Of a DNA stretch of 30,741 bases, positions 4,173-29,011 are shown in pieces. The notes beneath the pieces were generated by a model. It had not been told where the DNA came from and searched no databases. It worked only from the letters and a program-made list of their open reading frames with translations. Both the position numbers and the translations under genes were made by a program. The stretch's first letter is position 1; each line of letters begins with the position of its first letter. Origin of the DNA: Anaeromyxobacteraceae bacterium (lineage in GTDB: Bacteria; Myxococcota; Myxococcia; Myxococcales; Anaeromyxobacteraceae); NCBI GenBank assembly GCA_027349605.1, contig DAIEMM010000130.1:1-30741 (forward strand), written 5' to 3'.

Positions 4173-6146
4173 ATGCCCGCACTGTCATCCTCCGATCTCG
4201 TCGCGCCGCCGCCCGCTCCCCGCCCGGTCGAGGTGACGGACCTGGACGCATATCGTCGCCTGCATGCGCAGAGCTTGGCCGACCCGGAGGGCTTCTGGCG
4301 CGAGCGCATCGCTCCGTTCCGCTGGACCCGCCCGCCGGATCGGATCCTGGAGGGAGACGGCCCGGGGGCTCGCTGGTTCGTGGGGGGGCAACTGAACGTC
4401 GCCGACAACGCCCTCGACCGCTGGGTGGACGAGGGACATGGAGATCGGACCGCCCTGATCTGGGAGAGCGAAGGAGTCGATCACCTTCGGCGGCCGCTGG
4501 AGACTCGCCAATATTCGTTCCGGGAACTGCGCGACGCCGTGGCACGGGCAGCGGGGGCGCTCCGCGACCTGGGGGTGCGGCAAGGCGACCGCGTCACCGT
4601 GTACCTGCCCATCGTCCCGGAACTTCCCATCGCCATGCTGGCGTGCGCCCGGCTGGGAGCGGTCCACAACGTCATCTTCGCCGGCTTCCCGGACCAGGCG
4701 CTGCTCGACCGGATAGAGGACAGCCAGAGCAGGGTCGTCGTGACGGCGGACGGCGGCTACCGTGGTGGCAAGGCCATCGCCCTCAAGTCCGTCGTCGACG
4801 CCGCGGCACGCAGGACGTCGCTCGTCGAGAAGGTCCTCGTGCTACGGCGGACGGGCGAGCCCGTAGGCTGGACGCCCGGCCGCGACCACTGGTGGCACGA
4901 GGCCTTGGAGAGAGCGACTCCCGCCGCTCCGGTGCCGGTGGCGAGCGATGCGCCCCTCTTCGTCATGTATACCTCCGGATCCACGGGGAAGCCGAAGGGG
5001 ATCACGCACGGTACTTCCGGATATCTGGTCCACACGGCGCTGACGGCACTCCATGCCTTCGACCTCCGGCCCGGAGACGTGAACTGGTGCACCGCCGATC
5101 CGGCCTGGATCACGGGTCACACCTACACGGTCTACGGGCCGCTGCTGTCCGGCGCGGCCACAGTGCTCTTCGAGGGAGTGCTCGGCTTTCCGGACTGGGA
5201 TCGGGCCTGGGACGTGGTCGAGCGGCACCGTCCGGCGGTGCTCTACTCCACGCCCACCCTCGTCCGGGCCTGGCTCCGGCAGGGGGACGCAGGCCCGCGA
5301 GAGCGAGACCTCTCCTCCCTCCGCCTGCTCGCGTCGGTGGGGGAACCCATCAGTCCGAGCGTCTGGCACTGGTTTCGGGACGTCGTGGGAGGCGGACGGA
5401 CGCCGGTGGTCGATACGTGGTGGCAGACCGAGGCCGGCGCCGCGATGATCTTCCCGTTGCCCTACGTCACCCCGGCCAAGCCCGGCTCGGCCACCCTGCC
5501 GTTCTTCGGGGTCGATCCTGCCATCGCCGATGCAGAGGGTCGATTGCTCGACGGGGAAGCGGCGGGTCAGCTGGTGATCCGGCGTCCCTGGCCAGGCATG
5601 CTGCATGGCATCTGGGGCAGCCCGGAGCGGTATCGCGACACCTACTGGAAGTCGGTACCAGGTGCGTTCGTCACGGGCGACGCCGCGCGCCGGGACGCCG
5701 ACGGGTATGTCTGGATCGTGGGGCGTACCGATGACGTCATCAAGGTGAACGGGCACCGGCTCGGGACGGCCGAGATCGAGGGAGCGGTCGTGTCCCACCC
5801 GGCGGTGTCGGAGAGCGCGGTGGTCGGCGTGCCCGACGAGCGGTCAGGTGAGGCGGTGCTCGTCTTTGTCGTGCTGAAGCCCGGATTCTCCGCCGACGCG
5901 GAGCTCGAGTCGGGAATCGTCCACGCCATCGAGGCGATGGTTGGAAAGCTGGCGCGACCGCGCGAGCTGCGCTTCCTGAAGGCGCTTCCCAAGAACCGAA
6001 GCGGCAAGATCTTGCGGCGCATGCTGCGGGAGTGGGCCGTGACCGGCAAGGTGACGGGTGACACGACGACGCTCGACGACGCCTCGGCGCTCCCTCCGTC
6101 GACGGATGGCGAGCTCGTGGATCACGTGCAGAGGGGCATCGAGTGA
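4173..6146 (+). CDS. acs: Acetyl-CoA synthetase (AMP-forming)
   Basis: YTSGSTGKPKG, WCTADPAWITGHTY, SVGEPI, DTWWQTE, RTDDVIKVNGHRLG, RSGKILRR (Lys equivalent to the acetylated K609). Confidence 0.85.
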   Translation: MPALSSSDLVAPPPAPRPVEVTDLDAYRRLHAQSLADPEGFWRERIAPFRWTRPPDRILEGDGPGARWFVGGQLNVADNALDRWVDEGHGDRTALIWESEGVDHLRRPLETRQYSFRELRDAVARAAGALRDLGVRQGDRVTVYLPIVPELPIAMLACARLGAVHNVIFAGFPDQALLDRIEDSQSRVVVTADGGYRGGKAIALKSVVDAAARRTSLVEKVLVLRRTGEPVGWTPGRDHWWHEALERATPAAPVPVASDAPLFVMYTSGSTGKPKGITHGTSGYLVHTALTALHAFDLRPGDVNWCTADPAWITGHTYTVYGPLLSGAATVLFEGVLGFPDWDRAWDVVERHRPAVLYSTPTLVRAWLRQGDAGPRERDLSSLRLLASVGEPISPSVWHWFRDVVGGGRTPVVDTWWQTEAGAAMIFPLPYVTPAKPGSATLPFFGVDPAIADAEGRLLDGEAAGQLVIRRPWPGMLHGIWGSPERYRDTYWKSVPGAFVTGDAARRDADGYVWIVGRTDDVIKVNGHRLGTAEIEGAVVSHPAVSESAVVGVPDERSGEAVLVFVVLKPGFSADAELESGIVHAIEAMVGKLARPRELRFLKALPKNRSGKILRRMLREWAVTGKVTGDTTTLDDASALPPSTDGELVDHVQRGIE

Positions 6147-6250: not shown

Positions 6251-6295
6251 GCTCGGAGTGAGCGAAGGCGGCCGGCATCCGGCCCCGCACCGAGC
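6251..6295 (+). ncRNA. Structured 5-prime leader, copy 1 (candidate cis-regulatory RNA)
   Basis: GCTCGG-AGTG-AGCGAA-GG-C-GGCCGG-CAT-CCGGCC-CC-GCA-CCGAGC; same architecture as 15242-15284, with compensatory changes. Confidence 0.5.
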
Positions 6296-10871: not shown

Positions 10872-11969
10872 TCAGGACTCCCGAAGGACTTCGGAGGGAT
10901 CGAGTGCGACGGCGCGGCGCGTCGCCAGTGCAGCGGCCCCGGCGGCCACCAGACCAGCACCGATGACCGCGAAAGCGAACAGGTCGAGGGACGGGGATGC
11001 GGCAGCTCCAAGCGTGCGCGCGGAGAGCCAGCGGGTCGCCGGGATGGCAGTGAGGTACCCGGCCACTCCGCCGGCGATTCCGGACAGCCCAGCCGACGCG
11101 ACGAAGAGCGCCGCGACGACGGAGGGCGAGACCCCGATCGCCGCGAGCAATCCGAGGTCGCGCCGTGCCCTGCGCGCCTGCGCGGAGACGAGCGCGGCGA
11201 CGAGGCCGGCGACCGTCAGGGATCCAGCGATCAGGAGGGCCATGGCGTAGCGCCCCATCGTCGCGACCGCTCCCTTCTGGGCCTTCACCACGCCAGCGAC
11301 CGTGATCGCCCGGGAGCCGGGGAGGATGCGCTCCACCTCCTTCCCGAGCGCGGCCACGTCGATTCGGCACCAGCAACCAGCGAGTCGCAGGGCGTTGATG
11401 GCACCGGGCTGGCCGAGGACTTGCTGGGCCGTGACGAGGGGAACCAGGATCGCGTCCTCGAGGCCATCGGGCGGGCGGTCCATCACGCCCGCGACGGAGA
11501 GGCTGGCACCGTTGAGCTCGATGATGGAACCAGGCCGGAAACCGAGCCGGCCCGCCGCGGAAGGAGACAGCATGGCGGGCGCCGTCCCCACCACCGGCGA
11601 CCGGGGCCAGCTTCCCTCCTCGCCCACGAGGAGGACGTCCCGCCCACCGACGACCACGTGCCCGTACAGCCTGGCCTGGCTCCCGCGGATGTCCGAGGCG
11701 ATCTCGGACGACTTCAGGATGACCGGTGAGGCGTCGGGGAGCACCGACGGCCCGTACCGCTGCAGGTGAAAGTCACCAACGTCCTGGTCCCTGGGCAAGA
11801 CCAGCATGTTCGACCCGAGCCGGTGGGCCAGGTCATGGATGGCGCCATCAGCGGACGACGTCACCGCTCTCTGGGCGACGAGGGCCGCCACGATGAGGGC
11901 GACTGCCAGCGCGACGAGCGCGTACTCGCCCCAACGCACTCGTAGATACGCGAAAGTGATCCTGATCAT
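10872..11969 (-). CDS. MacB/FtsX-family ABC transporter permease with periplasmic CWC motif (365 aa)
   Basis: LGSNMLVLP after TM1, RRDLGLLAAIG motif, LDPSEVLRES end; periplasmic LRLAGCWCRID. Confidence 0.8.
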   Translation of the reverse strand: MIRITFAYLRVRWGEYALVALAVALIVAALVAQRAVTSSADGAIHDLAHRLGSNMLVLPRDQDVGDFHLQRYGPSVLPDASPVILKSSEIASDIRGSQARLYGHVVVGGRDVLLVGEEGSWPRSPVVGTAPAMLSPSAAGRLGFRPGSIIELNGASLSVAGVMDRPPDGLEDAILVPLVTAQQVLGQPGAINALRLAGCWCRIDVAALGKEVERILPGSRAITVAGVVKAQKGAVATMGRYAMALLIAGSLTVAGLVAALVSAQARRARRDLGLLAAIGVSPSVVAALFVASAGLSGIAGGVAGYLTAIPATRWLSARTLGAAASPSLDLFAFAVIGAGLVAAGAAALATRRAVALDPSEVLRES

Positions 11970-12016
11970 TCAGGCGTGCCCCCGGTCCGATGTGCTCGCA
12001 TTCGACGATGCGACGA

Positions 12017-12032
12017 TGCATGGGGCGGGCCG
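12017..12032 (-). promoter_or_regulatory. Sigma54 promoter for the ABC operon
   Basis: CGGCCCGCCCCATGCA (GG-N10-GC); 93 bp from the UAS C centre. Confidence 0.5.
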
Positions 12033-12111
12033 GAGCGGTCGCAATGACGTTTTCCCGCCATTCCTCGTCATACCCGCCGTCTTCAGGACGAAGTGGCCGA
12101 GCCGGCCGCCA

Positions 12112-12136
12112 CAGTGTGACGTTGCTGGTCACGCTG
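12112..12136. promoter_or_regulatory. Candidate activator binding site (UAS C)
   Basis: CAGTGTGAC-GTTGCTG-GTCACGCTG; the extended CGCCACAGTGTGA-N8-GTCACGCTGG is shared exactly with UAS E. Confidence 0.75.
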
Positions 12137-12195
12137 GTGCGGTCCCGATAGAGCGGAGCCTCCTGTGCTCGTGTGCTCAAGCCGGGAAGGCAGGA

Positions 12196-12211
12196 GGGCA
12201 CGCAAACTGCA
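12196..12211 (+). promoter_or_regulatory. Sigma54 promoter for the 12225-13133 genes
   Basis: GGGCACGCAAACTGCA; 73 bp from the UAS C centre. Confidence 0.6.
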
Positions 12212-12224
12212 GAAGCATGTTCCT

Positions 12225-12683
12225 GTGAGCGAACGAACAAGAGAGGCGGCGACCGAACCAGGACTCCCCGACCCAGGCGGATGCGCATTCGGCCCAGGGT
12301 TCTTTCTTGGTCAGCTCCGGGCGTTCGCGCGTGAAAGGTGTCCCGACCCAGCGGAGGGGCTACCGTCCGTGTCGGTCCACCTCGCCACGGGCGAGGTGCT
12401 GTCACTGTGTCACGTGGCAGGGCTCGCCCCGTGCTTCGTCGCACTCGTAATCCGTGAGGCAGACCGTGGCGACGGGCGAATGGCCACCGAGCTCGTCCCT
12501 TACTCGCTCATCACGCGCGTGACCATCCGAGCCGCGACCGGGGCAGATCGCCATGTGGGGTTCGACGCCACCCATGTGCCGCACATCCTCTCCGGGCGAC
12601 GCCCTCTCAGTCCGGAGGCGACCCTTCGAAGGGTGGCCATGCCTCCCGGAGTCGCTACCGTGGTGGAAGAAGACCGCGAGTAA
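12225..12683 (+). CDS. Hypothetical Cys-containing cytoplasmic protein (about 152 aa)
   Basis: GTG 12225 chosen because the ORF-track start 12165 lies upstream of the promoter; GCAFGPGFFLG, RCPDPAE, LCHV and ELVPYSLITRV look protein-like. Confidence 0.65.
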   Translation: MSERTREAATEPGLPDPGGCAFGPGFFLGQLRAFARERCPDPAEGLPSVSVHLATGEVLSLCHVAGLAPCFVALVIREADRGDGRMATELVPYSLITRVTIRAATGADRHVGFDATHVPHILSGRRPLSPEATLRRVAMPPGVATVVEEDRE

Positions 12684-12698
12684 GCGGAGGCAAGGCGA

Positions 12699-13133
12699 AT
12701 GAGTGGCCCGCGACTCCTAGTCCTCGGCGAGAAGCCACGACGAATCCTAGCCACCGCGCTGGGGCGCTCCTGGGAGATCACGGTCGCCCATGACGGCAGC
12801 GAGGCCCTGACGCTGCTCGCCGCCGAGTCTTTCGACGTTGCTTTCCTCGCGGATGAAGGCGGCGCACAGCACATCGATGCCGACTTCGTCCAGGCTGCGC
12901 ATCAAGTCGCTCCCGAGACCGAGATCGTCACCGTGTCCCATCTCCGTCTGGGATCGTGGCTTCCCGGGGAATGCCCGCCAGATGTCTACGGATTCCTGAC
13001 CTGGCCGCTCGATTCCGAACTCGTGGTGCGAACCCTTCGGGGTGCGGTCGAGCGTCGACGATTGCGCGCGGAGATCGAGTATCTGCGCGCCGAGCTTCGA
13101 CGGAGAGTTGGAATTCGAGACGTGGCCTCGTGA
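12699..13133 (+). CDS. Atypical (pseudo) receiver domain with NtrC-type coiled-coil linker (144 aa)
   Basis: RBS GGAGG; AHDGSEALTLL..ESFDV pattern; acidic pocket, phospho-Asp and Lys replaced (FLTWP); ends AVERRRLRAEIEYLRAEL. Confidence 0.7.
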   Translation: MSGPRLLVLGEKPRRILATALGRSWEITVAHDGSEALTLLAAESFDVAFLADEGGAQHIDADFVQAAHQVAPETEIVTVSHLRLGSWLPGECPPDVYGFLTWPLDSELVVRTLRGAVERRRLRAEIEYLRAELRRRVGIRDVAS

Positions 13134-13197
13134 GTCGGGCGCCCAGGGTTCATGGACCTAGCTAGCCGGCAATCCGGGTGCTGGAGCATTGGAGACT

Positions 13198-13259
13198 CCC
13201 GGCTGCCTGCTCGAACCATGAAGCGGGGGGGGGATGACATGGCGAGCAGGCGAGCCGGG
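13198..13259 (-). ncRNA. Long hairpin with C9-containing loop downstream of an orphan sigma54 promoter (candidate sRNA)
   Basis: On the + strand: CCCGGCT-GCCTGCTCG-AA-CCATG [17-nt loop with G9] CATGG-CGAGCAGGC-G-AGCCGGG, i.e. 21 bp paired. Confidence 0.4.
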
Positions 13260-13300
13260 CGAGGTCGGGTTCAACCGGCCCCACTGCATGAAAATCAAGA

Positions 13301-13316
13301 AGCACGATGCGTGCCA
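13301..13316 (-). promoter_or_regulatory. Near-consensus sigma54 promoter with no convincing downstream CDS
   Basis: TGGCACGCATCGTGCT; 94 bp from the UAS D centre. Confidence 0.6.
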
Positions 13317-13396
13317 TGTCGGCCCCAGCGTGGGCGAGTCAAGGATTGCCGGGATCGCGATGTCCGGGGGATGAGAGCAAGCGTCCGCAACAGTCA

Positions 13397-13421
13397 CGGC
13401 GTGACTGAGGGGGTTACACGG
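13397..13421. promoter_or_regulatory. Candidate activator binding site (UAS D)
   Basis: CGGCGTGAC-TGAGGGG-GTTACACGG; GCGTGACTGAGG is repeated at 13448-13459 as an extra half-site. Confidence 0.6.
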
Positions 13422-13469
13422 GGCGGTAGCGGCAACTCGTCAATGGAGCGTGACTGAGGAGCCGATGGA

Positions 13470-14540
13470 ATGGACGTCGGAACAGTTGGCGAAGGGACCA
13501 TCATGCAACAGACTGCGAGACGAAGGATCGCGTTCGTGCTGGGTGGCGGCGCCGCTCGCGGGCTGGCCCACATCGGGGTGCTGGAGGTGCTCGAGCGCGA
13601 GGGAATCCCCGTTGACTACCTGGTGGGGAGCAGCATGGGCGGCCTCATCGCGGCGCTGCACGCTTCCGGATTGAGGGCCGCGGAGATCGCCGAGGTGGCA
13701 TCGCACTTCCGATTTCCGCCTTGGTTCGTTCCGGGGTGGACGTTGTCCTGGGAGAGAATCTTCCCGTCTGCAGCAACCGAACTGGCGGGACTCACATTCA
13801 ACGAGGCCTTTCGCCCGATGGCCCTGGTCGCGGTCGACGTCGAGAGCGGGAAGCAGGTCGTGCTCAGGTCCGGGGAGCTTCTACCCGCCGTCAAGGCGAC
13901 GTGCGCGGTGCCGGGGGTATTGCCCCCCGTCGAGATCGGAGGGCGATGGCTCATCGACGGAGGGCTGGTGAACCTCCTCCCCGTTGACGTCGCCCAGATG
14001 TTCGACCCTGGGGTGATCGTCGCCGTGAAGGTGGGCGCGCAGCGATCCCGGACGATGCCCCGTTTGCACGAAGGAACGGAGACTCTGACCGAGTGGGTAG
14101 CGAGGATCGTTCCCAGCCCCTGGAGTGCTCGCCGAAGCTTCGAGCTGCTCGTCCGCGGGGCCGAGATCGCCCTCGATCGGCAATACACCTTGGCGGCGGC
14201 CATGGTGGGGCCAGACGTGCTCGTCGAGATAGACGTCGGGACCATGGGATTGCGGGACTTCCACCGACTCGACGAGGCCGTTCGAGCAGGACGGCGAGCC
14301 GCGGAAGCGGCCCTGGCGCGCCTGTTCGAGGCGATCGAGTCCGCGAACGAGGACACCGCACCTGCCTGCGCCATTCGAGATCTGATCTTCGACCCGATTT
14401 GCGAGATGGTCATCACCGCTGGCCGGGCCCGGGCGACGCTCGATTGCAGGGGCAGGACGTTCTACTTCTGTTCGGCCAACTGCCGCGACGAGTTCGCGAG
14501 GGGTCTGCACCGCCTGGATGACCCGTCGACGAGTGGGTGA
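13470..14540 (+). CDS. Patatin-like phospholipase fused to a C-terminal YHS/TRASH domain
   Basis: GGGAARG oxyanion motif, GSSMG nucleophile, DGG; C-terminus DPICEM...RATLDCRGRTFYFCSANCRDEF; start 13470 or 13503. Confidence 0.85.
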   Translation: MDVGTVGEGTIMQQTARRRIAFVLGGGAARGLAHIGVLEVLEREGIPVDYLVGSSMGGLIAALHASGLRAAEIAEVASHFRFPPWFVPGWTLSWERIFPSAATELAGLTFNEAFRPMALVAVDVESGKQVVLRSGELLPAVKATCAVPGVLPPVEIGGRWLIDGGLVNLLPVDVAQMFDPGVIVAVKVGAQRSRTMPRLHEGTETLTEWVARIVPSPWSARRSFELLVRGAEIALDRQYTLAAAMVGPDVLVEIDVGTMGLRDFHRLDEAVRAGRRAAEAALARLFEAIESANEDTAPACAIRDLIFDPICEMVITAGRARATLDCRGRTFYFCSANCRDEFARGLHRLDDPSTSG

Positions 14541-14559
14541 CGGTGCCCCCGTTTGGTCG

Positions 14560-14928
14560 TCACTCGACGACGACCGTGCCGCCGATCGAGTCCTTCGGGC
14601 AGGCGTAGCGGATCGTCCCGCTTTCCTCGGCCTTGAGCGCCACGGCTACTGGCTCATCCTTTGGCAGTTCCCGGACGAGTCCAAGATATCTGATGACGAC
14701 GGCGGTCGCACAGGTGTGATCTACGGTGCGTGTGAACACCAGCCTGATGTTCTCCCCCTTCTTCACGTGGATCTCCGAGGGGACGAATCCGCTGGAGTCG
14801 ACCGTGACCTTGACGATTCGCGGTCGGGGTGTCCAGGGATCCTGGATGGGGTGGAACTGTGCAAGCGCGGGGCTCGCCGCGAAGAGTGTATATGCAGCCC
14901 CGAGCGTGTACCAGGTCTTCTTGCGCAT
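14560..14928 (-). CDS. Secreted cupredoxin-domain protein (CupA-like), Met ligands absent
   Basis: Signal peptide; VTVDSSGFVPSEIHVKKGENIRLVFTR..DHTCAT..; YACPKDSIGG instead of FACxMxM; start 14928 or 14934. Confidence 0.8.
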   Translation of the reverse strand: MRKKTWYTLGAAYTLFAASPALAQFHPIQDPWTPRPRIVKVTVDSSGFVPSEIHVKKGENIRLVFTRTVDHTCATAVVIRYLGLVRELPKDEPVAVALKAEESGTIRYACPKDSIGGTVVVE

Positions 14929-14988
14929 CGTCATCCCCTGCCTGTCTGTGGGTTCTTGGTGGAGTGGAACCGTATGTGGCCATGCCTG

Positions 14989-15004
14989 TGCAGGGCGCGT
15001 GCCG
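14989..15004 (-). promoter_or_regulatory. Sigma54 promoter for the island cupredoxin
   Basis: CGGCACGCGCCCTGCA; 115 bp from the UAS E centre. Confidence 0.6.
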
Positions 15005-15105
15005 TCGCGGGTGAGAAGATGGCGATGCCGCCGCTCCCAGGAAAACCCGACGTCGAACTGGATGAAGGCACCTGGGATTCCACGAGGTGAAGTGTTCAAA
15101 CGCCA

Positions 15106-15130
15106 CAGTGTGATGGCGGACGTCACGCTG
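15106..15130. promoter_or_regulatory. Candidate activator binding site (UAS E)
   Basis: CAGTGTGAT-GGCGGAC-GTCACGCTG, located between divergent sigma54 promoters. Confidence 0.75.
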
Positions 15131-15210
15131 GGCGCGCTCAGGCCTTCGCGGTCAGGTTCCGAACGGGGCTGGGTACGGTTCGACCGACCTCGCGGGCGAT
15201 GGCCGCCCGC

Positions 15211-15226
15211 TGGCGCGACGCATGCA
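15211..15226 (+). promoter_or_regulatory. Sigma54 promoter for small secreted protein P2 (possibly also HD-GYP)
   Basis: TGGCGCGACGCATGCA; 94 bp from the UAS E centre; near-identical to 6221-6236. Confidence 0.65.
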
Positions 15227-15241
15227 CTCTCACCTCTTGGC

Positions 15242-15284
15242 CTCAGCAAGTGCCAAGGAGACCGGCATCCGGTCCCATGCTGAG
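15242..15284 (+). ncRNA. Structured 5-prime leader, copy 2 (candidate cis-regulatory RNA)
   Basis: CTCAGCA-AGTG-CCAA-GG-A-GACCGG-CAT-CCGGTC-CC-A-TGCTGAG. Confidence 0.5.
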
Positions 15285-15301
15285 CGTGCGAGGACGCGCC
15301 A

Positions 15302-24063: not shown

Positions 24064-25467
24064 TCAGTCGTCACGCTGCCGGTAGTCGTCCGAGCGCAGA
24101 CCGTGGGTCTTCAGGAGCCGGTGCAAGCTTTCGCGCTTGATGCCTGCCCGTTCCGCCGCCTTGGTCACGTTGCCGTGGAACTCGGTGAGGAGTGCCACCA
24201 GGTACTCGCGCGAGACGCGATCGTGCGCCTGCTCTACGGCCTCCCGGTAGGGCATGGACGCGAGTACCGCTCCGGGTGGGATGAGCATCGCTGTCGCAGC
24301 GGAGAGCTCTGGCGGGAGGTCGCGCCCCTGGATCGTCGTTCCGCTGGCGACGGCGACGGCGCGCTCCACGGCGTTTTCCAGCTCCCTCACGTTCCCGGGC
24401 CAGGGGTGCGACGTGAGCAGGCGGAGCGCCTCCGGGTCGAAGCCGGAGATCTCCCGCCGCATCGCGCTCGCATGTTTCTCCAGGAAATGCGTTGCGAGGA
24501 GGGGCACGTCCTCGATGCGATCGCGAAGCGGCGGCAAGTGAACCGGGAAGACGTGGAGACGGTAGTAGAGGTCCTCCCGGAAACGACCGGCCTGGGACTC
24601 GGCGCGCAGGTCCCGGTGGGTGGCCGCGATCACGCGGACGTCCACCTTCACGGGCGTGTTGTCTCCCACCCTTCGGATCTCCTTCTCCTGCAACGCGCGG
24701 TTGAGCTTCACCTGGGTCGCGAGAGGTAGCTCGCCGATCTCGTCGAGGAAGATGGTTCCACCCTGGGCCTCCTCGAAGATGCCCGCCTTGGCCCCGGCTG
24801 CACCCGTGAACGCGCCCCGTGCATGGCCGAAGAGCTCGCTCTCCACGAGATCGGGTGGCAAGGCGCCGCAGTTCACGGGCACGAACCGGCGCTCCTTCCG
24901 CGACGAGTGGTAGTGGATGGCGCGGGCCGCGAGCTCCTTGCCGGTGCCGGTCTCGCCGCCGAGGAGCACCGTGATGTCGAGCGCGGAAGCCTTCTCGAGG
25001 AGGCGGTACACCTCGCGCATCGGAGCGCTCTTCCCGATGAGGTTGTGGAAGGAGTACACGCCCTCGAGCTCCCGCCGCAGGCTCATCGCCTCGTCTCGGA
25101 GGCGCTTGCGTTCGGCGGCACGCGCCACCGTCAGGCCCGCGGCGTCGGGGTCGAACGGCTTCTCGAGGTAGTCGTAGGCTCCCATCTTCATTGCCTTCAC
25201 GGCGTCGCCGACCGTCCCATAGCCGGTCATCATCACCACCTCGGTGGAGGGGGAGCGTGCCTTCACGGCCTGGAGGACCTCGAACCCCCCGGCGCCCGGC
25301 ATGCGGATGTCGGTCACGACCACGTCGAACTCCTCGGTGCCGACGAGCGAGAGGGCGTGCGCTCCATCTCCAGCGGTCGACAGGCGGTAGCCGTGGGACA
25401 GGATCTTCCCGAACAGCTTCAGCATGTTTTCCTTGTCGTCGACGACGAGAACTCTCACGTCGGTCAT
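24064..25467 (-). CDS. Sigma54-dependent response regulator (NtrC family; CorR-like)
   Basis: Receiver VLVVDDK...VVTDIRMPG...YLEKPF; Walker A GETGTGKE; GAFTGA; FLDEIGE; C-terminal HTH GNVTKAAERAGIKRESL. Confidence 0.92.
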   Translation of the reverse strand: MTDVRVLVVDDKENMLKLFGKILSHGYRLSTAGDGAHALSLVGTEEFDVVVTDIRMPGAGGFEVLQAVKARSPSTEVVMMTGYGTVGDAVKAMKMGAYDYLEKPFDPDAAGLTVARAAERKRLRDEAMSLRRELEGVYSFHNLIGKSAPMREVYRLLEKASALDITVLLGGETGTGKELAARAIHYHSSRKERRFVPVNCGALPPDLVESELFGHARGAFTGAAGAKAGIFEEAQGGTIFLDEIGELPLATQVKLNRALQEKEIRRVGDNTPVKVDVRVIAATHRDLRAESQAGRFREDLYYRLHVFPVHLPPLRDRIEDVPLLATHFLEKHASAMRREISGFDPEALRLLTSHPWPGNVRELENAVERAVAVASGTTIQGRDLPPELSAATAMLIPPGAVLASMPYREAVEQAHDRVSREYLVALLTEFHGNVTKAAERAGIKRESLHRLLKTHGLRSDDYRQRDD

Positions 25468-26930
25468 CCTGAAACCTCCTGGGTGTGCGGAATGTGAGGA
25501 AGGCTCAGGGTGAAGATGGCTCCCCTGCCGGGCGCCGGGGAGAGCGCGATGTCCCCCCCGTGAGCACGCGCGATGGCGCGAGAAACCGCCAGGCCAAGGC
25601 CGGTACCCTTGTCCTTCGTGGTGAAGAACGGCTCGAAGAGCCGCGAGGCCGCGTGCTCCGCGAGGCCGGGTCCGTCGTCTTCCACGTCGACCCGGACCCA
25701 CTGCTCGTCGCCGCGCACCCGGATGGTCACCCGTCCGTTCGCCCCGGCGGCTTCGGCGGCGTTCCGAATGAGGTTGGTGAGCACCTGCCGGATCTTCAGG
25801 GGATGGCACTGCACGGTGGCCTCGCCGTCGATCGCGACCTGGACTCCCTCGAGGGCCTCGGCCTCCCGGAGGCGGCCGACGACTTCATCGGCGACCTCGC
25901 GAAGGTCGAGCACCTCGCGAGCCTGCGACAGCGGACGAGACAGGTCGAGAAGTCCCTCGACGATGTCGCGAGCACGGATGGCCTCCTCCTCGATCACGCG
26001 GACGTCGTCCGCCAGAGGCCCGCGAGCGCTCTTCCCGAGCAGTCGCGCATAGCCGAGGATGACGGCCAGAGGGTTGTTGATCTCGTGGGCGACGCCCGCA
26101 GCCAGGCGCCCGATGCCAGCCAGCTTCTCGCTCTGGACCAGGCGAGCCTGGTTTTCCTTGAGGGCCGCCGTCATGGAGTTGAACTGGCGGGCGAGAGCGC
26201 CGAACTCGTCATCGGTGCCGACGTCGATCCGGGTATCCAGGTCGCCGGACGCGAGCCTCGTGGCGCCCGCGCGCAGGCGACCCAGGGGGCCAGCAATCGA
26301 GCGGCCGACGCTCACCGCGATGGCGACGGCGAGAATTGGAGCGCCGATGAGGAGGACCATCACCCAGCGGTGGATGCTCTCCTCCGCCGCGAGGACCTCG
26401 GCCCGGGAAGCCCGGATGCTCGCCTCCGACTTCTCGGTGATGAGATTGGCTCGATCCTGGATGAGGGAGACGAGTTCCTGGGCCCGATCGTGCTCGGACT
26501 GGATGACGGTGGCGTCACGGCGAAGGACGGCGGGAACGATGGAATCGCGAAACAGCGAATCCAGGCTTCTGCCGGCCGTCTCGATGTCACCCATCCACCG
26601 GGATTCCTCTTCCCCTCGATAGTGCGCACGGAGCTCGCGCGTGAGTTCGTGCACGCGCTCGCGGGCTCCCACGTAATGACCCATGTGCGATTCGTTGCCG
26701 ATGATGATGGTGTGGGCCTGGTGGGCGTACTGGTCCCGCACCGCGCTGGCGAGCTCGAGCGCGAGCCGCATCCCTTCCTCGTCGTCCTTCATCCGTTCCA
26801 CCGCCAGGTGCGTGCTGTGCAAGCCGGCCAGCGCAACCCAGGATGTCACCCCCACGACGAGGGCGAGAGCGCCCAGGCCAAGGGCGAGCCGTCGCGCCGT
26901 TCCCGACCAGCCAGAGAGGAAGGTGTGCAT
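25464..26930 (-). CDS. HAMP sensor histidine kinase with His-rich periplasmic domain (CorS-like)
   Basis: Two TMs; periplasmic QYAHQAHTIIIGNESHMGHY; HAMP; H-box GVAHEINNPL; N-box NLIRNA; DDGPG, FFTTK, GTGLGL. Confidence 0.9.
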   Translation of the reverse strand: MHTFLSGWSGTARRLALGLGALALVVGVTSWVALAGLHSTHLAVERMKDDEEGMRLALELASAVRDQYAHQAHTIIIGNESHMGHYVGARERVHELTRELRAHYRGEEESRWMGDIETAGRSLDSLFRDSIVPAVLRRDATVIQSEHDRAQELVSLIQDRANLITEKSEASIRASRAEVLAAEESIHRWVMVLLIGAPILAVAIAVSVGRSIAGPLGRLRAGATRLASGDLDTRIDVGTDDEFGALARQFNSMTAALKENQARLVQSEKLAGIGRLAAGVAHEINNPLAVILGYARLLGKSARGPLADDVRVIEEEAIRARDIVEGLLDLSRPLSQAREVLDLREVADEVVGRLREAEALEGVQVAIDGEATVQCHPLKIRQVLTNLIRNAAEAAGANGRVTIRVRGDEQWVRVDVEDDGPGLAEHAASRLFEPFFTTKDKGTGLGLAVSRAIARAHGGDIALSPAPGRGAIFTLSLPHIPHTQEVSG

Positions 26931-27628: not shown

Positions 27629-29011
27629 GTGCTCTCGATCGTGGCCTTGCTCGTCGTCGCCGCAGCCGATGTTGGGACTGCACCCATTCCGCTCGACGCG
27701 GATCCCGCGGTCCGGGGGCTCGTGGAGCAGGCGCTGAAGAGCAGCCCGGAGATCGGGAGGGCCGAGGCGACCGCGAAAGCGGAGGGCGAGCGGGCCCCTC
27801 AGGTGGGCTCCCTTCCAGACCCGACGCTCACGCTGGGCATCCAGAACGACGGCTTCAATGGGATCCAGATCGGGACCATGGAGACGTCCTACTGGCAGGT
27901 CATGCTGACGCAGCCGATTCCCTGGCCCGGAAAGCTCTCGGCGAGGGAAGCGGCGGCACGCTCCCAGGCGAGCGTCGCCGGTGGAGAGACGGCGCGGCTC
28001 CGGCTCACGACCACGGCGGACGTGGAGCGGGCCTACGTGGACCTGCTCCTCGTCCGCGGCCAGATCGCGCTGCTCGGCAAGCTGGAGGTGCTCTGGCGGG
28101 AGGCCGAGGTGATAGCCAGGGCGCGCTACGAGGTCGGTCAAGTGTCGCAGTCGGACCTGCTTCGCGCGCAGCTCGAGCGAACCCGGCTCCAGCAGCGCCG
28201 GGTGGCGCTGGAGGGCGAGGAGCGGACCCGGCTGCAGGCGCTCAACCGGCTCCGGGTCCATCCGCTCGACGAACCGGTCCCCACGCCACGTCCACTCTCC
28301 ACGTTCACCGACCCGGTCCTTCGCGCGGTTGACGAGGCAGTAGCCGATGCCGAGAGGCGGAGTCCCGACCTCGCCATCGCCGCGCTCTCGGTGCAGTCCG
28401 CCGACCGTCGCCTCGATTCCGCGAAGAAGGACTGGTTCCCCGACTTCGCCGTCACCGCGGGAGTCATGCCGCGGGGGCAGATCGAGCCCATGTGGACCGT
28501 TCAGCTCGGGATCACCCTGCCTGTCTGGGGTGCGACCAAGCAGTCGAAGGGCGTGGAGGAGAGCCAGTCACGCCGTGAAGCCGACCTCCGCAGCGAGGAG
28601 TCGGTGCGACTTCAAGTAAGGCTGCGCGCGCAGGAGCGGAGGACGCTTCTCGCCTCGGCGCTGCAGACCCTCGACATCTATCGCGGCGGAATCCTCGTGC
28701 AGTCGGACGCAACCATCCGCTCCACGATGTCCCAGTACCAGGTGGGCAAGGTCACGTTCCCCTCGGTGCTCGAGGTCCTGCGCGGTCTCGTCGGCGACGA
28801 GGGCGGCTACCTGGACGCCTTGGCTGCGGCCCAGAAGCTGGCCATCGCCGACCGTGAAGTGAGCCTTGCTCCTCCCGATGGAATAGGCAGCGGCTCCGGC
28901 GGATCGATGCCGGGCGCGGCCTCCGTGTCCACCGCGGGGCGCCCCGCCGGAGGTTCGCCCCAGCCCGCCGCCGTTCCCGCCGCGACCGGCAGCACGTCTT
29001 CCGGAATGTAG
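27629..29011 (+). CDS. TolC-family outer membrane efflux protein (CusC-like)
   Basis: GTG after AGGAGG; SLPDPTLTLG, QPIPWPGK, YEVGQVSQSDLLRAQ, KDWFPDF, YQVGKVTF. Confidence 0.88.
   Translation: MLSIVALLVVAAADVGTAPIPLDADPAVRGLVEQALKSSPEIGRAEATAKAEGERAPQVGSLPDPTLTLGIQNDGFNGIQIGTMETSYWQVMLTQPIPWPGKLSAREAAARSQASVAGGETARLRLTTTADVERAYVDLLLVRGQIALLGKLEVLWREAEVIARARYEVGQVSQSDLLRAQLERTRLQQRRVALEGEERTRLQALNRLRVHPLDEPVPTPRPLSTFTDPVLRAVDEAVADAERRSPDLAIAALSVQSADRRLDSAKKDWFPDFAVTAGVMPRGQIEPMWTVQLGITLPVWGATKQSKGVEESQSRREADLRSEESVRLQVRLRAQERRTLLASALQTLDIYRGGILVQSDATIRSTMSQYQVGKVTFPSVLEVLRGLVGDEGGYLDALAAAQKLAIADREVSLAPPDGIGSGSGGSMPGAASVSTAGRPAGGSPQPAAVPAATGSTSSGM

Follow-up and report, generated by a model that had tools for sequence, protein, structure and literature searches.

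A candidate sigma-54-dependent small RNA with a C-rich loop in an accessory island of an Anaeromyxobacteraceae bacterium

Introduction

Small RNAs (sRNAs) made from sigma-54-dependent promoters are, to our knowledge, few and come mostly from Proteobacteria, and in Myxococcota only Pxr, the targets of which are unknown, has been studied. The sRNAs with C-rich loops include the staphylococcal UCCC-motif sRNAs. In Myxococcus and its relatives, the Pxr gene is flanked by nla19 and an NADH dehydrogenase gene, and the RNA forms three stem-loops (PMC5568312, PMC5684412). Qrr acts through Hfq (PMC4878744), and CrcZ sequesters Hfq/Crc (PMC6296734). The RepG RNA of Helicobacter carries a C/U-rich loop and targets a G-repeat (PMC8295292), and the copper regulon of Myxococcus xanthus is that of CorSR, a kinase with a sigma-54 activator (PMC3707914).

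Here, we analysed a DNA stretch of 30,741 nucleotides (hereafter, the window) from an Anaeromyxobacteraceae bacterium, in which an initial annotation, made from the letters alone, had proposed an activator-dependent sigma-54 promoter driving a structured RNA with a C-rich loop. This core reading is supported by a conserved footprint, strand-specific substitutions, the loss of open reading frames in other lineages and an enhancer common to several promoters. Our results support the presence of a new small non-coding RNA gene, unlike any Rfam family, of a kind that is already known, namely the sRNAs driven by sigma-54 and two-component systems. Its location is not that of Pxr between nla19 and the NADH dehydrogenase gene, nor does it form three stem-loops.

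Results

The window and its accessory island

The window represents contig C196 of a metagenome-assembled genome of 2.54 Mb, which is 74% complete and has a GC content of 71.6%; the metagenomes in which its DNA is represented best come from mine drainage. The Atlas cluster nearest to its RpoN consists mostly of Myxococcota, which is weak evidence for a probable Anaeromyxobacter-like myxobacterium, whereas the sulfite reductase gave no taxon. The genes at ~11800-15300 have a GC3 of 0.63-0.80, compared to 0.94 in the long ORFs of the genome, and thus an atypical codon composition, and the receiver-like protein encoded among them has no close homologue among 200 genomes of the order. Because GC3 is low and both the receiver-like protein and the RNA are absent from the sampled relatives, this stretch is, as judged from its sequence, an accessory island with a narrow or patchy distribution, along with which the RNA travels. 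The island was probably acquired horizontally.

The rpoN gene is located on contig C317, and approximately 20 Sigma54_activat genes are found in the genome, one of them inside the window, which encodes the following kinase/activator pair:

25464-26930, minus strand: HAMP histidine kinase (Pfam)
24064 to about 25470, minus strand: NtrC-type sigma-54 activator (Pfam)

Genes similar to CusC/CusB (Pfam) adjoin this pair (24064-26930), which is a candidate for the cognate activator of the enhancer motif described below. Judged from gene content only, the signal of the island is suggested to be a metal, since it involves a cupredoxin, a YHS domain, Cus-like efflux and, in related contigs, a P-type ATPase. 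Neither Hfq nor CsrA was found in this only 74% complete genome.

An intergenic unit conserved in ten lineages

The locus around the proposed RNA comprises the following features:

13400-13418, minus strand: enhancer TGTAAC-N7-GTCAC(G), with half-sites invariant and the 7-nt spacer variable in 10/10 lineages
13316-13301, minus strand: sigma-54 promoter TGGCACGCATCGTGCT, with the -24 GG at 13315/13314 and the -12 GC at 13303/13302
13190-13290, minus strand: predicted small RNA of ~100 nt, its start placed from the promoter and its end from the limit of conservation and a U/C-rich tail
12699-13133, plus strand: stand-alone receiver-like gene, convergent with the RNA gene and adjoining it in 10/10 lineages; no Pfam hit
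13470, or more likely 13503, to 14540, plus strand: patatin-YHS gene; the alignment favours the ATG at 13503
14934-14560, minus strand: Cupredoxin_1 gene, 124 aa (Pfam)

Homologous loci were reached through homologues of the cupredoxin and of the receiver-like protein, which yielded contigs L051-L072. The same intergenic unit is present in ten distinct metagenomic lineages (ten sequence variants), the neighbouring proteins of which are 56-74% identical. Conservation of the hairpin and its loop in relatives, which the initial annotation had named as a check, was found in all ten for the hairpin and for the C-run of the loop. Read in the direction of the RNA, the alignment starts with the invariant enhancer half-sites, followed by ~75 poorly conserved nucleotides, the GGCAC and TGC promoter elements, a variable stretch of about 14-18 nt and a near-invariant block of ~95 nt. 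This block begins at +3 to +6 of the predicted start site, 15-18 nt past the -12 GC, and ends at ~13192 with GGGAGU and a short pyrimidine tail; past the hairpin, conservation collapses to the level of a coding gene. The identity of the module to that of the window is 79-98%; the corresponding values for the adjacent receiver-like gene are 69-83% over all nucleotides and 55-76% at third codon positions. It is only through this conservation that the original observation becomes significant, since the promoter string and a 9-nt complement in the cupredoxin mRNA, taken each by itself, are at chance level. Altogether, the module is non-coding, structured and conserved beyond synonymous sites, as expected of a trans-acting base-pairing sRNA, the transcript of which would be discrete.

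In 10/10 lineages, the module adjoins the receiver-like gene in convergent orientation. On its other side, the neighbour differs: the patatin-YHS gene occupies this position in the window, in L052 and L072 and probably in L065; in L059, L064 and probably also L068, it is the cupredoxin gene itself that comes next, and in L071 it is an ORF of 83 aa. The patatin-YHS gene, for which no promoter of its own was seen, stands between cupredoxin and enhancer only in the sub-clade of the window, L052 and L072. As the cupredoxin stop codon directly precedes the enhancer in L059 and L064, the patatin gene looks like an insertion.

Several other observations concern the surroundings of this unit. L063 and L072 are parts of one 85-kb contig, from an organism with two cupredoxin paralogues; one of these lacks the RNA module and has small ORFs, a GAPDH-like gene and a gene for a P-type Cu-ATPase behind it, and the other is found in the patatin/RNA/receiver-like arrangement. 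Opposite the DUF gene at 12225-12683 (plus strand), which lies upstream of the receiver-like gene, public gene calls place an ORF of 132-148 aa (L064 1281-1727, L071 1309-1755, L072 1979-2377). Because all five substitutions between the window and L059 in one stretch are synonymous in the DUF frame, the DUF gene on the strand of the receiver-like gene is the real one, and the antisense calls are probably spurious.

Promoter and activator site

The string TGGCACGCATCGTGCT matches TGGCACG-N4-TTGCW at 15 of the 16 positions and has the canonical spacing, so the sigma-54 promoter match that had been proposed at 13316-13301 (minus strand) is indeed present, one mismatch away from the consensus. Genome-wide, such one-mismatch matches number 16, as against 14 for a reversed control, and their frequency is not above chance. 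Across the lineages, GGCAC and TGC are invariant (10/10), with a free spacer between them (CATC, CGCC, AACC, CACC, CCTT, CAAT). The spacing is that of the consensus, RpoN and activators are encoded in the genome, and an upstream activator site lies in the 70-150 bp range, as expected of a sigma-54 promoter. Transcription would start near 13290, approximately 12 nt past the -12 GC. We also considered the promoter as a small minus-strand terminator (GCACG-CAT-CGTGC followed by a T-rich run) and rejected this possibility because the arms of its stem are the conserved -24 and -12 elements and the T-run is not conserved.

The activator site had initially been placed 94 bp from the promoter, which agrees with our data (centre at about 13409, ~94 nt from the -24 GG). 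Both the alignments and a pattern scan make TGTAAC-N7-GTCAC (13418-13401, minus strand) a better reading of it than the GTCAC-N3-GTGAC palindrome. The generalized motif GTRAY-N7-RTYAC has 29 matches in the genome, four of which are in the window, alike in architecture and each 70-114 bp from one or two -24/-12 motifs:

enhancer 6143, promoter 6221: architecture matching that of the 13401 site
enhancer 12116 (12116-12132), promoter 12196: DUF/receiver-like operon; divergently, promoter at ~12032-12017: MacB-like permease
enhancer 13401, promoter 13316: small RNA gene
enhancer 15110, promoter 15211: small secreted protein; divergently, promoter at 15004: cupredoxin

Comparison of the homologous loci showed that other lineages, too, have kept the cupredoxin promoter and the region around 12116 with its divergent promoters. 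Since this type of site is common to at least five other promoters of the island, the RNA gene is one output of a multi-promoter island with a single enhancer type.

Four side observations relate to these sites. In the window, a 12-nt direct repeat, GCGTGACTGAGG, occurs at 13398-13409 and 13447-13458, 49 bp apart; compared to L052, the window has ~50 bp extra between the enhancer and the patatin start, which duplicates one enhancer half-site. On contig C311 (~4886-4990), GTGAC-N7-ATCAC lies 81 bp upstream of TGGCAGGCACCTTGCA, possibly marking a member of the regulon outside the window. At 28565-28578, in or beside the CusC-like gene, the 14 nt CAGTCACGCCGTGA match the palindrome at 13391-13407, probably by chance (E about 3). 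Finally, the small RNA (13287-13259, minus strand) and the leaders at 6257-6295 and 15249-15284 (both plus strand) each open with AGUG, after which a hairpin of the GGCCGG or GACCGG type comes within ~40 nt of the start; these starts of three sigma-54 transcripts, two of them leaders of small secreted proteins, could represent a common 5′ element or a coincidence in GC-rich DNA.

Structure, strand and non-coding character of the predicted RNA

The predicted RNA is organized as follows:

13259-13284, minus strand: SL1, 5′-proximal hairpin of 8 bp with a hexaloop; two pairs changed on both sides, none broken
13199-13258, minus strand: SL2, hairpin of 20 bp with two bulges; 17/20 pairs never vary and three vary only to G·U
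13221-13237, minus strand: apical loop of 17 nt with C9 at 13233-13225, candidate seed

The 103-nt RNA folds with -48.4 kcal/mol (z = -3.6), a stability attained by none of 200 shuffled sequences. The hairpin with a C-rich loop that had been described before is thus real, including its C9, while its stem measures 20 bp with two bulges rather than 21 bp. Nine C residues in the window correspond to C5-C9 elsewhere, with the C-run present in 10/10 lineages and with loop flanks and length (10-16 nt) being variable. RNAalifold returned the same two stems (SL1 of 8 bp, SL2 of 20 bp), with standard pairs in all 307 pair cells; across 11 sequences, all 28 pairs are 100% paired, and two pairs of SL1 are changed on both sides, compensatory variants of this stem being found in L064 and L067. 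Covariation is modest (27 of 500 shuffles attain the observed score), because the SL2 stem hardly varies.

There are 18 non-Watson-Crick cells, distributed over six columns; every one of them is G·U on the minus strand and would be an A·C or C·A mismatch on the plus strand. The minus strand is favoured for this reason, and our comparison shows that the pattern of substitutions fits an RNA structure on the very strand predicted by the promoter. The near-invariance of both stem arms is not accounted for by a model in which the loop acts as the seed; a protein partner or a constraint from the 3′ end of the convergent mRNA are possibilities.

None of the ORFs in the gap scores as coding, in agreement with the initial annotation, which had found no RBS-backed ORF there. 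One alternative raised at that stage was a leaderless ORF of 43 aa beginning at ATG 13289; in the other lineages, this ATG is directly followed by TAG, and the loop shifts the frame. Because loop length varies by numbers that are not multiples of three, no reading frame crosses the loop, and the spacer between promoter and module, variable in length (14-17 nt), breaks a plus-strand ORF of 46 aa. Comparison of the lineages thus shows, through the loop lengths and the ATG-TAG, that the module is non-coding at the sequence level.

Following SL2, the tails read AGUCUC, AGUUCUC or AGUUUUC, and a scan for intrinsic terminators (at least 5 U in 8) made no call at SL2, the tail having too few U residues. 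SL2 is probably also a terminator, possibly a bidirectional one, and termination may occur in the high-GC host despite the poor U-tract. The stop codon of the receiver-like gene lies 15-60 nt from SL2 across the lineages, and as it is about 15 nt away in six of them, SL2 very likely also ends the receiver-like mRNA; the two RNAs may have complementary 3′ ends. The bidirectional terminator that had been offered as an alternative to the RNA is in this sense probably part of the truth, given the stop codon ~15 nt away in six lineages. Taken alone, a terminator is insufficient because it leaves the near-invariant sequence and the conserved promoter without account.

Candidate targets

Two translation-initiation regions were considered as targets of the C-rich loop:

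14925-14945, minus strand: cupredoxin translation-initiation region, GGGGAUGAC, the candidate target of the initial annotation
11970-11999, minus strand: initiation region of the gene for the MacB-like ABC permease; G5 run at 11983-11979
11969-10872, minus strand: gene of the MacB-like ABC permease

The 9-nt complement noted earlier at the cupredoxin start, GGGGATGAC, is present at 14930-14938 (minus strand), overlapping the start of the gene. The accompanying warning that such a match can arise by chance was justified, as 9-nt complements to the RNA occur dozens of times in the window. Pairing at this site persists, with bulges, in four of five lineages (the window, L052, L064 and L072); in L059 it has disappeared, and no change on the other side compensates for this. 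An RNAduplex ranking over the whole window did not place the site among the best 25. A duplex between the SL1 loop and the leader of the cupredoxin gene (GGUUCAAC) is not conserved and was dropped.

Upstream of the MacB-like gene, a G5-6 run is kept at -15 to -10 in 5/5 lineages, within a conserved leader of ~30 nt behind a conserved -24/-12 motif. In L052, the complementarity to this leader spreads into the flanks (-27.9 kcal/mol). Overall, the C-run is kept in 10/10 lineages, the cupredoxin site in 4/5 and the MacB-like G-run in 5/5, with no compensatory change and with weak statistics, which are not compelling for either site. The MacB-like leader is a second putative target, from the same regulon as the cupredoxin.

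Distribution and occurrence in RNA libraries

The Rfam search that had been suggested as a check returned no known family for the candidate RNA: Rfam 15 gave no family at the gathering threshold anywhere in the window, and at E<=10 it gave only a generic hairpin match to a microRNA model, with 13.9 bits against a cut-off of 76 bits. In BLAST searches with the module, 40 relatives and ~400 phylum genomes gave short GC-rich chance matches only, and the covariance model R1, run against 91 genomes of the family, matched the window itself and nothing else. Exact-pattern scans of genome and metagenome contig collections with two conserved 24-26-mers produced 0 matches in all four scans; these collections evidently lack the contigs later reached through proteins. 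Within its genome, the module is single copy, so the idea of a repeat or mobile element was abandoned.

Public runs were compared with positions 12000-15300. Three unrelated metatranscriptomes (two from soil, one from a river) contain contigs that match only 13192-13284/5 or 13240-13291, with 1-3 differences from the module and unlike sequence on both sides, which delimits a discrete 93-nt block. These matches within unlike flanks indicate that other organisms, too, carry the hairpin block as a discrete and highly conserved module. In one of the contigs, the module is 89 nt from the 3′ end of a cupredoxin homologue, with GTGAC-N7-GTCAC in between. Being unstranded, the contigs show presence in RNA libraries and carry no start-site information; because of this, and because one of them reaches 148 nt upstream of the module, past the promoter, they may represent read-through RNA or DNA carry-over. 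In the RNA runs of the mine-drainage source study, the module is absent.

Discussion

Comparison of the ten lineages shows sequence conservation for the RNA module as well as for the promoter elements and the enhancer. For the locus as a whole, the best explanation is a sigma-54-dependent sRNA with a C-rich loop that is switched by an NtrC-type activator, to which we assign a probability of roughly 0.6. Its start site and 3′ end, the identity of its activator and its mode of action we infer as follows. An NtrC-type activator would bind TGTAAC-N7-GTCAC ~94 bp upstream and switch on the sigma-54 promoter at 13316-13301. The transcript would start near 13290, form a 5′ hairpin and then the long, almost invariant hairpin with an apical run of 5-9 C residues, and most likely end at the U/C-rich tail after SL2, facing the stop codon of the receiver-like gene. 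As a committed guess, the C-rich loop would pair with G-rich ribosome-binding regions of mRNAs of the regulon (the MacB-like leader and the cupredoxin start), and such pairing with co-regulated mRNAs would amount to a feed-forward loop. An additional effect in cis could arise where the RNA and the convergent receiver-like mRNA overlap with complementary 3′ ends. The fully specified version is a new sRNA family in which the poly-C loop clamps the G-rich ribosome-binding sites of the MacB-type exporter and of cupredoxin, while pairing of the 3′ hairpin with the overlapping 3′ end of the convergent pseudo-receiver mRNA tunes a possible anti-activator of the very enhancer-binding protein that switches these genes on; it is tentative and, in our view, rather doubtful.

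The same locus could instead produce a long antisense RNA or cause transcriptional interference, with read-through into the DUF/receiver-like operon (13133-12225) lowering its expression by pairing or polymerase collision, and with the hairpin serving both to stabilise the 5′ part of this RNA and to terminate the plus-strand operon. The constant convergent position of the RNA gene next to the receiver-like gene (10/10 lineages, with the neighbour on the other side varying), the mere ~15 nt between stop codon and hairpin in six lineages and the poor U-tract past the hairpin all fit this scenario, which we nevertheless consider unlikely: antisense complementarity is automatic and does not require the near-invariant sequence of the module, conservation falls to coding-gene level right after the hairpin, and a stem of about -40 kcal/mol with a conserved GAGU-pyrimidine tail resembles a stop. 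If the hairpin were merely a bidirectional terminator for the receiver-like and (ancestrally) cupredoxin transcripts, the promoter match would have no product of its own. Such a function agrees with the position of the hairpin between the 3′ ends of two convergent genes in L059, L064 and the X26 contig, and with a promoter string that by itself does not exceed chance genome-wide. It becomes highly improbable in view of the -24/-12 elements and enhancer half-sites, which are invariant in ten lineages around variable spacers, of a module identity (79-98%) that is abnormal for terminators when synonymous sites reach 55-76%, of the conservation of the C-run and SL1 as well, and of the G·U pattern, which suits the minus strand and not that of the receiver-like gene.

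That both stem arms hardly vary and show little covariation could also reflect a constraint on DNA, in which case the 21-bp inverted repeat with its homopolymer spacer would be a site of protein binding or recombination, or else a small mobile element. The sharp borders of the block (13192-13285) in contigs with unlike flanks and the atypical codon composition of the island (GC3 0.63-0.80 vs 0.94) point in the same direction. Yet the module is single copy in the genome, its orientation is constant with the same promoter and enhancer always ahead, its three arm changes are all G·U on one strand, and neither target-site duplications nor transposase genes were seen nearby, so that we see only a slim chance for an element of this type. 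Least credible of all is a small protein encoded by the 43-aa ORF (ATG 13289), a 51-aa ORF (13317) or the plus-strand 46-aa ORF (13234-13374). All three ORFs exist in the window, and the plus-strand one contains Cys/His residues; against them stand the TAG after ATG 13289 in all other lineages, loop lengths that do not change in multiples of three, the variable promoter-module spacer, which shifts the frame of the plus-strand ORF, and poor coding scores.

The activator-switched sRNA would be a second Myxococcota candidate, unrelated to the first and with an unusually clean comparative signature in enhancer and promoter as well as in the RNA and its strand. The compact regulon to which it belongs comprises cupredoxin, YHS-patatin, small Cys/His proteins, a MacB-like exporter and a pseudo-receiver and lies beside the kinase/activator pair and the genes for Cus-like efflux; the organisms come from mine drainage and sediments. 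This regulon yields a short list of candidate targets. Such islands would thus carry an RNA arm that is overlooked by protein-based annotation.

Among the described systems, Pxr is similar in being a myxobacterial RNA of ~100 nt with a predicted sigma-54 promoter and enhancer of its own, several stem-loops and a neighbour gene from the world of sigma-54 response regulators (PMC5568312, PMC5684412). Unlike Pxr, the window RNA has two stem-loops, a poly-C loop and receiver-like as well as cupredoxin/patatin neighbours, and it shows no detectable Rfam similarity and has no copy in ~400 genomes of the phylum. The wiring, in which a kinase and an NtrC-type activator act on an sRNA with a -24/-12 promoter, is that of Qrr1-4 (LuxO; PMC4878744), NrsZ (NtrBC; PMC4253122) and CrcZ (CbrAB; PMC6296734), from which the window RNA differs in phylum, sequence, structure and, judging from gene content only, probably in its signal, a metal. 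It also differs from Qrr and CrcZ in that Hfq was not found in its genome, itself incomplete. With CorSR, the locus shares a kinase with a sigma-54 activator and several -24/-12 promoters, clustered with genes for cupredoxin/oxidase, P-type ATPase and efflux (PMC3707914), a likeness in gene content; no sRNA is known from the CorSR regulon. Whereas RepG differs in promoter type and taxon, and the best targets of the window RNA are only candidate stretches of G5-6 and G4, the two RNAs have in common a single-stranded apical C-run suited to G-runs or Shine-Dalgarno-like sequences and a homopolymer length that varies between lineages (PMC8295292).
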